DNA of 64,000 bases, taken from Comamonadaceae bacterium. GTDB taxonomy: Bacteria > Pseudomonadota > Gammaproteobacteria > Burkholderiales > Burkholderiaceae_C. The stretch spans positions 16,595-80,594 of the forward strand of contig CANFLU010000004.1 of NCBI GenBank assembly GCA_947447975.1. Reading direction: 5' to 3'. Each line of letters starts with the position of its first letter. Within the stretch, counting starts at the first letter, position 1. Both the position numbers and the translations under genes were made by a program. The notes under the pieces were generated by a model, which did no database searches, was not told where the DNA came from, and saw only the letters and a list, made by a program, of their open reading frames with translations. Of the stretch, positions 55,375 to 58,154 are shown piece by piece.

Positions 55375-56835
55375 ATGATCTCTCGCGAACCCACCCTCGA
55401 ACGCTTGGCCACGGCCAAATCCCTGTTGCTTACGCCTTTCGGCCTGGACGAAGGGCACCTGAGCCGCGCATTGGCGGAAATCAAAGCGCATAAAGTGGAC
55501 GAAGCGGACCTGTATTTTCAATACACCCGCTCTGAGGGTTGGAGCTTGGAGGAAGGCATTGTCAAAACCGGCTCATTCAGCATTGACCAGGGCGTGGGCG
55601 TACGCGCCGTCAGCGGCGAGAAAACCGCTTTTGCCTATTCCGACGATATTTCCGAAGCTGCGCTGCTCGATGCCGCGCGCACGGTGCGCAGTATTTCGCA
55701 AGCGGCCAGCCAGCGCCGTATCGGCGTGAGCAAACCCAAGATTGCGCGCAGTCGCTCGCTCTACCCCGACCAGGACCCGATCGCCACCATGGACAGCGCC
55801 GCCAAAGTGGCTTTGCTCGGGCGGGTGGAAAAACTGGCCCGCGCCAAAGACCCACGGGTCTTGCAAGTAATGGCCGGCCTGGCCATGGAATACGACGTGG
55901 TGCTGGTGGCGCGTGCCGACGGTGTGCTAGCGGCCGATGTGCGGCCCTTGGTGCGCTTATCGGTGACCGTGATTGCGGAGCAAAAAGGCCGGCGCGAGGT
56001 AGGCTCCTCTGGCGGAGGCGGACGTTTTGGTCTGGCCTATTTTGACGACGCGCAAATCAGCAAGTACGTGGACCAGGCGGTGCATGCGGCGCTCACTAAT
56101 TTGGAGGCGCGCCCCGCACCGGCCGGTGAAATGACGGTGGTGCTGGGCTCGGGTTGGCCGGGCATTTTGTTGCACGAAGCCATTGGACACGGCTTGGAAG
56201 GCGACTTCAACCGCAAGGGCTCCAGCGCATTTAGCGGCCGCGTAGGCCAGCGCGTGGCGGCCAAAGGCGTCACGGTCTTGGACGACGGCACCATGGCCGA
56301 CCGGCGTGGTTCGCTCAATGTTGATGACGAAGGCAACACCAGCGCGCGTAACGTCCTGATCGAGGACGGCATCCTCAAAGGCTATATCCAGGACGCCATG
56401 AATGCGCGCCTGATGGGCGTGGCGCCCACTGGCAACGGGCGGCGTGAAAGCTATGCCCATGTGCCCATGCCGCGCATGACCAACACCTATATGCTGGGCG
56501 GCGACAAAGCGCCCGAAGAGATCGTGCGCAGCATTAAAAAAGGACTGTACGCGGTCAATTTCGGTGGCGGACAGGTAGACATTACCTCGGGCAAATTTGT
56601 GTTCTCGGCCAGCGAAGCCTACTGGGTGGAAAACGGAAAAATTTTGTATCCTGTCAAAGGTGCGACGCTGGTTGGCAGCGGGCCAGACTGCTTGAAGCGT
56701 GTCAGCCTGATCGGCAATGACATGGCCCTGGACAGCGGTGTAGGTACCTGCGGCAAAGACGGACAAAGCGTGCCTGTGGGCGTGGGCCAACCCACTTTAC
56801 GTATCGACGGCCTGACCGTAGGTGGCACCGCCTGA
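55375..56835 (+). CDS. tldD: metalloprotease TldD
   Basis: Contains DLYFQYTRSEGWSLEEGIVKTGSFSIDQGVGVRA and HEAIGHGLEGD (the HExxxH motif). Confidence 0.95.
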   Translation: MISREPTLERLATAKSLLLTPFGLDEGHLSRALAEIKAHKVDEADLYFQYTRSEGWSLEEGIVKTGSFSIDQGVGVRAVSGEKTAFAYSDDISEAALLDAARTVRSISQAASQRRIGVSKPKIARSRSLYPDQDPIATMDSAAKVALLGRVEKLARAKDPRVLQVMAGLAMEYDVVLVARADGVLAADVRPLVRLSVTVIAEQKGRREVGSSGGGGRFGLAYFDDAQISKYVDQAVHAALTNLEARPAPAGEMTVVLGSGWPGILLHEAIGHGLEGDFNRKGSSAFSGRVGQRVAAKGVTVLDDGTMADRRGSLNVDDEGNTSARNVLIEDGILKGYIQDAMNARLMGVAPTGNGRRESYAHVPMPRMTNTYMLGGDKAPEEIVRSIKKGLYAVNFGGGQVDITSGKFVFSASEAYWVENGKILYPVKGATLVGSGPDCLKRVSLIGNDMALDSGVGTCGKDGQSVPVGVGQPTLRIDGLTVGGTA

Positions 56836-56878
56836 GACCGCAAGTCTGCGCAAGCGCTGCTGTGTTACATTCATGCCC

Positions 56879-56947
56879 ATGAAATTTCAGTGCTTTTACT
56901 TTAGCTACTTTTGGTTCTCCAACGCCCCCGGCGTGAGAGGGTTCTGA
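56879..56947 (+). CDS. putative aromatic-amino-acid leader peptide (22 codons; in-frame alternative ATG at 56873)
   Basis: My own translation gives MKFQCFYFSYFWFSNAPGVRGF*. Eight of residues 3-13 are Phe/Tyr/Trp. The ORF is followed by an intrinsic terminator and then the DAHP synthase gene. It is too short to appear in the ORF track. Confidence 0.6.
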   Translation: MKFQCFYFSYFWFSNAPGVRGF

Positions 56948-56983
56948 ACGCAAGCAGTTAAACAGCGTACCGAATTCCCCGAA

Positions 56984-57009
56984 CCGCCGGCCTCCCCGGC
57001 GGTTTTTTT
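56984..57009 (+). terminator. rho-independent terminator / attenuator: CCGCCGG-CCTCC-CCGGCGG followed by T7
   Basis: A 7-bp all-GC stem, a 5-nt loop and a run of seven T. It sits 37 nt after the leader ORF stop and 41 nt before the DAHP synthase ATG. Confidence 0.8.
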
Positions 57010-57050
57010 ATGTCTTGATTTTTTGAACCAACTGCAAGAGGAAATCCGCA

Positions 57051-58154
57051 ATGACCGCCAGCGCCGACCGTACCAGCATTACCGACGACGAACGTATCAA
57101 GGACATTACCGTGCTGCCGCCCCCTGAACATTTAATCCGCTTTTTCCCCATTAGCGGCACGCCGGTGGAAGGCCTAGTCTCCTCCACCCGCAAGCGCATT
57201 CAAAACATCATGAACGGAAAAGATGACCGCCTGCTGGTCATCATCGGCCCCTGCTCCATCCACGACCCCGCAGCTGCGCTGGACTATGCCAAACGGCTGA
57301 AAGAACAGCGTGACCGTTATGCCGACACCTTGGAAATCGTGATGCGGGTGTACTTTGAAAAACCCCGCACCACCGTAGGGTGGAAGGGCCTGATCAATGA
57401 CCCCTATTTGGACGAGAGCTTTCGTATCGACGAAGGCCTGCGCATCGCGCGCCAGTTGCTGATTGACATCAACCGCATCGGACTGCCCGCAGGCAGCGAG
57501 TTTTTAGACGTTATTTCACCCCAATACCTGGGCGACCTGATAGCCTGGGGCGCTATTGGTGCGCGTACTACCGAAAGTCAGGTGCACCGGGAGCTGGCCT
57601 CGGGCCTGTCTGCCCCTATTGGCTTTAAAAATGGCACCGATGGCAACATCAAAATCGCCACTGATGCGATCCAGGCAGCTGCCGGTGGGCATCACTTTTT
57701 ATCGGTACACAAAAACGGCCAAGTGGCGATTGTGCAAACCCAGGGCAACCCGGATTGCCACGTGATTTTGCGCGGTGGCAAGGCGCCCAACTACGACGCA
57801 AAAAGCGTGGACAGCGCATGCCAGGATCTGGCCAAAGCAGGGCTGCCACCCAGCTTGATGGTGGACTGCAGCCATGCCAACAGCAGCAAGCAGCACCAAA
57901 AGCAGTTGGACGTAGCAAAAGATATCGCCGGCCAGCTAGCACAAGGTTCGACCCGAATTTTTGGCGTGATGGTGGAGAGCCATTTGAACGCCGGGGCGCA
58001 AAAGTTCACACCTGGCAAAGACCCAGTGGCCGGTCTGCAGTACGGGCAAAGCATCACCGACGCCTGCCTAGGCTGGGACGATTCGATCAGCAGCCTAGAG
58101 ACCCTGTCGCAATCGGTGAAAGCGCGGCGCGTGCGCCGCAGTACCGCGACCTAA
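57051..58154 (+). CDS. 3-deoxy-7-phosphoheptulonate (DAHP) synthase, class I-alpha (AroF/G/H type)
   Basis: Contains DDRLLVIIGPCSIHDP, VMRVYFEKPRTTVGWKGLINDP, AIGARTTESQVHRELASGLS and MVDCSHANS. The feedback isozyme cannot be assigned from sequence by eye. SD is GAGGAA. Confidence 0.95.
   Translation: MTASADRTSITDDERIKDITVLPPPEHLIRFFPISGTPVEGLVSSTRKRIQNIMNGKDDRLLVIIGPCSIHDPAAALDYAKRLKEQRDRYADTLEIVMRVYFEKPRTTVGWKGLINDPYLDESFRIDEGLRIARQLLIDINRIGLPAGSEFLDVISPQYLGDLIAWGAIGARTTESQVHRELASGLSAPIGFKNGTDGNIKIATDAIQAAAGGHHFLSVHKNGQVAIVQTQGNPDCHVILRGGKAPNYDAKSVDSACQDLAKAGLPPSLMVDCSHANSSKQHQKQLDVAKDIAGQLAQGSTRIFGVMVESHLNAGAQKFTPGKDPVAGLQYGQSITDACLGWDDSISSLETLSQSVKARRVRRSTAT

Follow-up and report, generated by a model that had tools for sequence, protein, structure and literature searches.

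A probable transcription attenuator with a mixed aromatic codon run ahead of the DAHP synthase gene in Burkholderiales and Xanthomonas

Introduction

How is the entry of carbon into the shikimate pathway controlled in the Burkholderiales? In Escherichia coli, the genes for the enzyme at this entry step, 3-deoxy-D-arabino-heptulosonate 7-phosphate (DAHP) synthase, are under the repressors TyrR and TrpR, and to our knowledge the control of the same step in Burkholderiales has been little described. The question is raised by a locus of a Comamonadaceae bacterium (assembly GCA_947447975.1, contig CANFLU010000004.1, positions 16,595 to 80,594 of the forward strand; this whole stretch of 64,000 nucleotides (nt) is referred to below as the window). 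There, a 215-nt gap between tldD and a DAHP synthase gene houses a short open reading frame (ORF) crowded with codons for Phe, Tyr and Trp, an intrinsic terminator and, inside the ORF, a copy of the 3' arm of that terminator. An earlier description of this DNA, called here the original prediction, interpreted the arrangement as a ribosome-mediated attenuator, and comparison with relatives supports that interpretation. The element is very probably a four-segment ribosome-mediated transcription attenuator of the trpL/pheL/hisL type that controls the DAHP synthase gene. This reading rests on sequence elements, their conservation, covariation and predicted alternative folds; the translation of the leader and its transcription start site are points that we infer.

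The leader ORF, the terminator and the antiterminator

The leader ORF (56879-56947, + strand) consists of 22 codons and a TGA stop codon (56945-56947) and reads MKFQCFYFSYFWFSNAPGVRGF. Its regulatory codon run, codons 6-13 (56894-56917, + strand), spells Phe-Tyr-Phe-Ser-Tyr-Phe-Trp-Phe, and with a further Phe at codon 3 (56885-56887) residues 3-13 comprise 5 Phe, 2 Tyr and 1 Trp, that is, 8 aromatic residues out of 11. Downstream, a terminator scan places an intrinsic terminator at 56981-57009 (+ strand; -17.0 kcal/mol), formed by segments 3 and 4 of the proposed attenuator. Its stem, GAACCGCCGG / CCGGCGGTTT (56981-56990 with 56996-57005), has 10 pairs, 7 of them G-C, and encloses the loop CCTCC; the T7 tract occupies 57003-57009, and the CCGCCGG of the stem begins 36 nt past the leader stop codon.

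Segment 3 has a second possible partner. The sequence CCGGCG at 56928-56933 (segment 2), which lies 12-19 nt ahead of the leader stop codon, can pair with CGCCGG at 56985-56990, giving an antiterminator that spans 56928-56990 (+ strand) around an inner hairpin at 56939-56977. In the window this pairing is predicted whenever the 3' arm of the terminator is omitted, and for a transcript that extends up to segment 3 and carries a ribosome stalled in the middle of the aromatic run, the predicted fold is the antiterminator (-20.8 kcal/mol). When a ribosome is modelled at the stop codon, the terminator is the sole structure that remains. A further hairpin, between segments 1 and 2 (UUCUC..ACGCC-CCC-GGCGU..GAGGG, 56915-56941, + strand), is predicted at -11.6 kcal/mol and is treated here as an inferred part of the module.

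What the original prediction had read from the sequence of this region held up throughout. The ORF with its composition and a second in-frame ATG at 56873 were recovered when the sequence was re-read, the scan returned the strong terminator downstream of the leader, and folding reproduced both the antiterminator pairing, which is moreover conserved and covarying in relatives, and its masking by a ribosome that has arrived at the stop codon.

Proposed mechanism

These elements suggest the following sequence of events. An extended -10 promoter would start transcription on the leader AUG or 1 nt ahead of it, and a ribosome would translate the 22-codon leader. When aromatic amino acids are plentiful and the Phe-, Tyr- and Trp-tRNAs are charged, the ribosome would reach the stop codon at 56945 and cover segment 2 (56928-56933); segments 3 and 4 would then pair, the terminator would form and the polymerase would halt at the T7 tract, releasing a transcript of about 130 nt. 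When aromatics are scarce, the ribosome would stall within FYFSYFWF and cover segment 1, leaving segment 2 free to pair with segment 3; this antiterminator would preclude the terminator and allow read-through into the DAHP synthase gene. If the leader were not translated at all, segments 1 and 2 would pair and transcription would be expected to terminate.

Conservation of the module among relatives

The comparison drew on 80 loci whose DAHP synthases are orthologues of the window's enzyme, with 61-86% identity to it. They come from Comamonadaceae (Variovorax, Acidovorax, Polaromonas, Limnohabitans, Hydrogenophaga, Ramlibacter, Comamonas and others), the Rubrivivax/Roseateles/Aquabacterium/Rhizobacter group, Burkholderia, Paraburkholderia and Caballeronia, Oxalobacteraceae (Massilia, Janthinobacterium, Rugamonas), Bordetella, Rhodocyclaceae, Methylophilaceae and Xanthomonas. 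Mini-ORFs were searched for in the 330 nt that precede each DAHP synthase gene, and most of these regions yielded an ORF of 18-33 codons that starts with ATG and carries a run such as FYFAYFWFS. At least six aromatics per ten residues were found in 61 of 78 upstream regions; the reverse complements of these 78 gave no such case and dinucleotide shuffling gave one in 390. A density of seven per ten in an ATG mini-ORF was reached by none of the 390 shuffles.

The full module was recognized at 63 loci by the ORF scan. A covariance model built from these 63 leaders (R1) added four more, L027 and L058 together with L018 and L067, both of which are cut by contig ends, and it makes a single match in the 64-kb window, at 56879-57009 with 87.7 bits. 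The conservation of an aromatic mini-ORF upstream of orthologous DAHP synthase genes, which the original prediction had named as its refutation test, was thus seen at 67 of 80 loci. Carriers are found in Comamonadaceae, the Rubrivivax/Roseateles group, Burkholderia, Paraburkholderia, Oxalobacteraceae, Bordetella and Xanthomonas. The model found no match at the loci of Polynucleobacter (L033, L035 and L036), Cupriavidus necator (L039), Rhodocyclaceae and Methylophilaceae, nor at L048, L072, L074 and L077. The three Polynucleobacter loci keep the tldD-DAHP synthase pair and have, upstream of position 2460-2500, no aromatic mini-ORF, leader or matching terminator; it seems that this streamlined genus either lost the attenuator or never acquired it. 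The C. necator locus lacks the module though its enzyme is 75% identical to that of the window.

Across its carriers the module measures about 130 nt: every one of the 63 leaders spans 120-146 nt between its ATG and the last T of the tract, with a median of 131. It comprises an ATG mini-ORF with 5-9 Phe, Tyr or Trp per ten residues, a GGCGG box and a terminator of the form ACCGCC(G/A)G...C(C/U)GGCGG-U6-9. The conserved blocks follow a set order: an aromatic run ending in UUUUGGUUCUC, the GGCGG box with GAGAG(G), a variable spacer that ends C-rich (CCUCC or UCCC), AACCGCC(G/A)G, a loop, C(C/U)GGCGGU and U6-9. The ACCGCC/GGCGGT pair is invariant from Comamonadaceae to Xanthomonas, which is unusual conservation for a terminator region.

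Some loci depart from this arrangement in other respects. At L061 (about positions 2400-2480), tandem GCACGAAC-like units (CGAACGCACGAACGCACGAACGCACGAACG...) are inserted between the terminator and the DAHP synthase start. In L054, L057, L059 and L060, all from Paraburkholderia or Burkholderia, the terminator lies 127-149 nt from the gene, compared with 30-80 nt elsewhere, a gap wide enough to hold a second promoter or some further element. L074, from a metagenome-assembled genome labelled Chloroflexota, encodes a DAHP synthase of betaproteobacterial type (63% identity) preceded, at about 2300-2470, by a divergent aromatic leader, MANPVRCFSYFWFSYFACEGRG..., and a different terminator stem, GGCGCGGGGC/GCCCCGCGCT, which R1 misses; it is either a divergent attenuator variant or a mis-binned contig.

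What is conserved in the leader peptide

All 63 leaders keep the ATG, the frame, an in-frame aromatic run and a stop codon located past segment 2, whereas the N-terminal residues, the length of the ORF and the type of stop codon (26 TAA, 22 TGA and 15 TAG) are free to vary, as are the N- and C-terminal parts of the peptide in general. Alignment gaps between the ATG and the aromatic run amount to whole codons in nearly all rows, and the leader stop sits 16-50 nt ahead of the terminator stem at those loci where a simple terminator scan placed the terminator. The consensus run is FYFxYFWFS. Tyr occurs in every leader and Trp in 52 of the 63, the median being 4 for Phe, 2 for Tyr and 1 for Trp.

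The peptide tails, GGRE in Comamonadaceae and LADREG in Burkholderia, are an RNA constraint read as protein: they are conserved because the GGCGG box lies within the last third of the ORF. Codon usage in the run also differs from that of the adjacent DAHP synthase genes at the 63 loci, TTT accounting for 64% of Phe codons in leaders and 18% in the genes, and TAT for 41% and 24% of Tyr codons, respectively; this excess could reflect a preference for the rarer codons, for U-rich unstructured RNA, or for both. As to which of the three amino acids would be sensed, Phe codons dominate the leader, and the enzyme is nearest to the Phe-sensitive AroG of E. coli.

Two mutually exclusive helices and their covariation

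The terminator, found in essentially all leader-bearing loci, is 96.8% paired across the 62 distinct sequences obtained from the 63 leaders. One of its pairs is G-C in 41 sequences and A-U in 19-20; a second is A-U in 60-61 and G-C in 2. The ORF-internal copy of its 3' arm is likewise present in nearly all leader loci: the GGCGG box, which constitutes this copy, occupies the last third of the ORF in 58 of 63 leaders, at a distance of 45-60 nt from the start codon, and lies 9-40 nt before the end of the leader stop codon.

The antiterminator pairing was specified by hand, since RNAalifold applied to the MAFFT alignment returns the terminator alone. Its core helix is 86.9% paired in relatives, a figure lowered by seven MAFFT rows that stand one column off register and explain most of the unpaired cells. 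One pair of this helix is variable (25 C-G, 14 U-A and 4 U-G) and shows 14 compensatory changes from C-G to U-A; no column shuffle matched the covariation score, and sliding the partner by one column reduced pairing to 40-44%. The change can be followed through all three segments: segments 2, 3 and 4 read CCGGCGG, CCGCCGG and CCGGCGG in Comamonadaceae, and CTGGCGG, CCGCCAG and CTGGCGG in Burkholderia, Xanthomonas and some others. Segment 2 and both arms of the terminator therefore co-change from G-C to A-U.

Predicted folds follow the same pattern. When a ribosome is modelled over the central aromatic codon, the fold of lowest energy joins segment 3 to the ORF-internal GGCGG in 63 of 63 leaders, and when the ribosome cover is cut by 3 nt the core of segment 3 still pairs upstream in 62 of 63 leaders, compared with 44% of sequences whose upstream part was shuffled. 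The median energy across leaders is -22 kcal/mol for the antiterminator state and -17 kcal/mol for the terminator. In transcripts that end before segment 3, segment 2 is sequestered in a predicted local hairpin in 63 of 63 leaders, and this hairpin is often closed by a UUCUC/GAGAG stem that begins in the last aromatic codons.

Promoter and start of the leader

Upstream of the leader lies a probable promoter, an extended -10 box TGTG-T-TACATT (56861-56871, + strand; TGTGTTACATT, a TRTGn element with its hexamer at 56866-56871), followed in the window by a 7-nt spacer and the ATG at 56879. The original prediction had noted an extended -10-like box here, and it turns out to be conserved at a fixed distance from the ATG: in the window and in L002-L045, cTGTGcTACATT is nearly invariant about 18 nt before the leader ATG. 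A TGnTAnnnT box with its end 6-9 nt ahead of the leader ATG is present in 39 loci, 22 of which have a spacer of 7 nt; among these 22, the T-G-T-G-c-T-A-c-A-t-T positions are kept in 19-22 loci, a c just in front of them is nearly invariant too, and both flanks vary. Matches to a -35 element upstream of the box are poor, as is expected of extended -10 promoters. The base preceding the leader ATG is C in 30 of the 39 box-bearing loci, and the variable 7-nt spacer usually ends in CC. Sigma-70 promoters start transcription 7-8 nt past the -10 hexamer, with a pyrimidine at -1 and a purine at +1. The box may accordingly be read as a TRTGn extended -10 promoter whose transcription start would be the A of the AUG or the nucleotide that precedes it. 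TGTGCTACA was also considered as a TyrR-type operator and rejected, as the box matches TRTGn-TAnnnT, keeps a fixed, promoter-like distance and has no TyrR-box palindrome.

A Shine-Dalgarno-like 4-mer precedes only 1 of 66 leader ORFs, as opposed to 55 of 66 DAHP synthase genes. Because the leader has no such site and its ATG follows the -10 hexamer by 7 nt, the leader mRNA is probably leaderless in the lineage of the window, as judged from promoter spacing. A start of this kind is plausible, since a proportion of 14% leaderless mRNAs is reported for Xanthomonas (PMC3300014). Burkholderia and Oxalobacteraceae have instead a promoter of the type TTGxCA-17-TATAAA about 35-40 nt upstream, again with no Shine-Dalgarno site. 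Promoter spacing also bears on the start codon: the ATG at 56873, which the original prediction had offered as an alternative, sits in the promoter spacer 1 nt past the -10 hexamer and has no counterpart in relatives, for which reasons it is very unlikely to be used and 56879 is taken as the start.

Taken together, these features allow a more specific but only tentative reading, which we consider possible rather than probable: that in Comamonadaceae and their neighbours, possibly including Bordetella and Xanthomonas, the leader is translated as a leaderless mRNA and one 8-codon run integrates the charging of Phe, Tyr and Trp tRNAs.

Gene context and the regulated gene

The regulated gene (57051-58154, + strand) encodes a class-I, AroG-like DAHP synthase of 367 aa (TIGR00034, 537 bits), whose closest solved relatives are the Phe-sensitive AroG of E. 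coli (461 bits) and, behind it, the Tyr-sensitive AroF (396 bits). As originally predicted, it has a Shine-Dalgarno site of its own, GAGGA at 57038-57042 (+ strand), 8 nt ahead of its start codon at 57051. The end of the T-tract is separated from this start codon by 41 nt. A scan of 56300-57500 for sigma-70-like promoters returned none, including in the stretch between the terminator and the DAHP synthase gene; with no promoter-like site in that 41-nt gap, the gene can be transcribed only through the terminator.

On the other side of the gap, tldD occupies 55375-56835 (NF008006, 661 bits), and the terminator starts 146 nt past its stop codon on the same strand. Of 62 leader-bearing loci, 46 have tldD upstream and 16 do not, which indicates that the module travels with the DAHP synthase gene and not with tldD.

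Weighing the alternatives

This neighbour offers another explanation for the hairpin, which could be the terminator of tldD, the aromatic ORF being a chance feature of a U-rich spacer. Its position behind tldD and the presence of tldD at most leader-bearing loci fit this idea, but the comparative data effectively refute it: the 16 loci with a leader and no upstream tldD, the Polynucleobacter loci that pair tldD with DAHP synthase and have neither leader nor terminator, the conserved promoter box between tldD and the leader ORF, and the frequency of the aromatic ORF itself (61 of 78 against 1 of 390 shuffles) make it the least credible of the readings considered. Scarcely more credible is that the short ORF acts on the translation of DAHP synthase or the stability of its mRNA, through stalling or decay. 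Upstream ORFs (uORFs) can work in this way, yet the leader-bearing loci conserve a G+C-rich stem with a U6-9 terminator and a helix that excludes it, and the Shine-Dalgarno site of the structural gene lies 30-150 nt past the terminator, outside the alternative structures. A protein or small molecule might also set the choice between terminator and antiterminator, in the manner of TRAP, a riboswitch or a T-box, with the ORF being incidental. The highly conserved GAGAG(G) box beside segment 2 could be a binding site for it, and the lack of a Shine-Dalgarno site in front of the leader ORF also speaks for it. We nevertheless regard this as very improbable, given that the ATG, the frame, the aromatic run and the stop beyond segment 2 are kept in 63 loci while nucleotides vary, that gaps between the ATG and the run come in whole codons in nearly all rows, and that no riboswitch, T-box or other Rfam family reaches threshold in the window region or in ten related loci; TRAP itself binds 11 repeats, whereas a single GAG-type box is present here.

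A role in trans would be compatible with attenuation, and control of DAHP synthase in cis would then make up only part of the function: the terminated RNA of about 130 nt or the hydrophobic 22-aa peptide could act elsewhere in the cell. Precedents are the trp attenuator RNA rnTrpL and peptide peTrpL of Sinorhizobium (PMC7968998 and PMC7298713). The terminated RNA would be plentiful in replete cells, and the module, with its ACCGCC/GGCGGT, is conserved to a degree unusual in a terminator region. On the other hand, every conserved block (the aromatic codons, segment 2, the GAGAG box and segments 3 and 4) is explained in cis, and both ends of the peptide vary freely. An additional function in trans is thus unlikely, if less so than the foregoing proposals.

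The attenuator reading, for its part, has several points against it. A leader ORF that lacks a Shine-Dalgarno site needs leaderless or Shine-Dalgarno-independent initiation. Judged by itself, the window gives folds that cannot be told apart from chance, with z = -1.94 over the region as a whole and z = -1.25 in the antiterminator state, and the support for the structure is accordingly comparative. The window's segment 2 also falls short of the family consensus, having GGCGT in place of GGCGG and a 6-bp core. The segment 1:2 hairpin has a median z of -1.09 and is no stabler than shuffles. Covariation is thin, the helix cores being invariant and essentially one variable position carrying the signal, and the compensatory changes probably reflect few evolutionary events split along lineages. 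Finally, sensing of three amino acids is not to be assumed by analogy, as the mixed leader aroR of Corynebacterium glutamicum answered to Phe only.

Relation to known attenuators

The element shares with pheL-pheA and trpL-trpEDCBA of E. coli (Rfam Phe_leader, RF01859, and Trp_leader) a short ORF with codons for the product of the pathway, four segments that pair as 1:2, 2:3 and 3:4, and a segment 2 placed just before the leader stop. It has no sequence or covariance-model relationship to them, and it differs in preceding the entry enzyme of the common pathway and not a terminal-branch gene, in mixing Phe, Tyr and Trp codons in one run, and in having a leader ORF with no Shine-Dalgarno site that is probably leaderless in the lineage of the window. 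A scan of the window region against Rfam 15 at E <= 10 gave only sub-threshold matches, confined to the terminator hairpin: sroD with 23 bits, Phe_leader with 15.5 bits (threshold 55) and ncS54 with 13 bits. Ten related loci matched no Rfam 15 family at gathering threshold. With no match at threshold, the element does not correspond to a catalogued RNA family or to a known Burkholderia small RNA. Similarly, six leader peptides from different lineages matched no family among the NCBIfam and Pfam hidden Markov models, even at E <= 10, and none of ten leader peptides was present in an exact look-up in a collection of 15 billion proteins.

Attenuation of DAHP synthase genes by leader peptides does have precedents elsewhere, and the claim of the original prediction that sampling all three aromatic tRNAs at this step would be a different regulatory logic was overstated. 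In C. glutamicum, attenuation of aroF, a DAHP synthase gene, by the aroR leader peptide (Phe-Tyr-Phe) has been shown experimentally (Neshat et al. 2014, cited from PMC11802643), and in those experiments the leader responded to limitation of Phe and not of Tyr. The logic of a mixed aromatic leader that attenuates DAHP synthase is shared, but the likeness, drawn from its description, is one of functional analogy only: aroR belongs to the Actinobacteria, its motif has 3 residues as against 7-9 here, and it contains no Trp. The uORFC-13-1 motif, predicted before aroF of Acholeplasma with 24 representatives in one genus (PMC8632094), has a uORF with Phe codons directly upstream of an intrinsic terminator and ahead of a DAHP synthase gene. 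Compared here by its description only, it differs in coming from Mollicutes and in that its U run specifies one Phe or more, Tyr and Trp codons not being described. Merino's database lists attenuators for the DAHP synthase-tyrA operon of Vibrio (aroAIα_Y > tyrA, aroF type; PMC1173090), and there is an old attenuation hypothesis for aroF of E. coli (cited in PMC8632094). A regulon comparison in Proteobacteria places TyrR and TrpR on DAHP synthase genes and RNA-level attenuation only on trp and pheA (PMC5343134).

Leaderless mRNAs are common in Actinobacteria. The leaderless poly-Cys short ORFs of mycobacteria, described as Cys-responsive attenuators (bioRxiv 10.1101/834739), share with the present leader a regulatory short ORF that opens the transcript and has neither a 5' untranslated region nor a Shine-Dalgarno site; they differ in their phylum and in the amino acid sensed, and the leaderless start of the present leader is deduced from promoter spacing. 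In the literature searched, no description of this leader in Burkholderiales or Xanthomonadales turned up, though older comparative work may contain an earlier prediction. The element is, in short, a real and widely conserved member of a well-known class of regulators that is apparently uncatalogued.

Implications

The mechanism itself will not surprise specialists; the value of the element lies in its breadth, in the three-way covariation, in the universal lack of a Shine-Dalgarno site and in the probable leaderless start. The module of about 130 nt is listed in neither Rfam, Pfam, NCBIfam nor the collection of 15 billion proteins, and it can be added to genome annotation, as the covariance model finds it specifically. 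Given the missing Shine-Dalgarno site and the probable leaderless start, one may ask how an attenuator that has no ribosome-binding site couples transcription to translation; if the leaderless reading is true, coupling of the first ribosome to RNA polymerase at this Proteobacterial attenuator depends on ribosomes that load at a 5'-terminal AUG. If the run senses all of its aromatic codons, a single switch at the entry of the pathway would integrate the charging of the Phe, Tyr and Trp tRNAs. For the group that includes Burkholderia, Bordetella, Acidovorax, Variovorax and Xanthomonas, the attenuator is a candidate answer to how this entry step is controlled, and its removal should deregulate the flow of carbon into the shikimate pathway in these bacteria.

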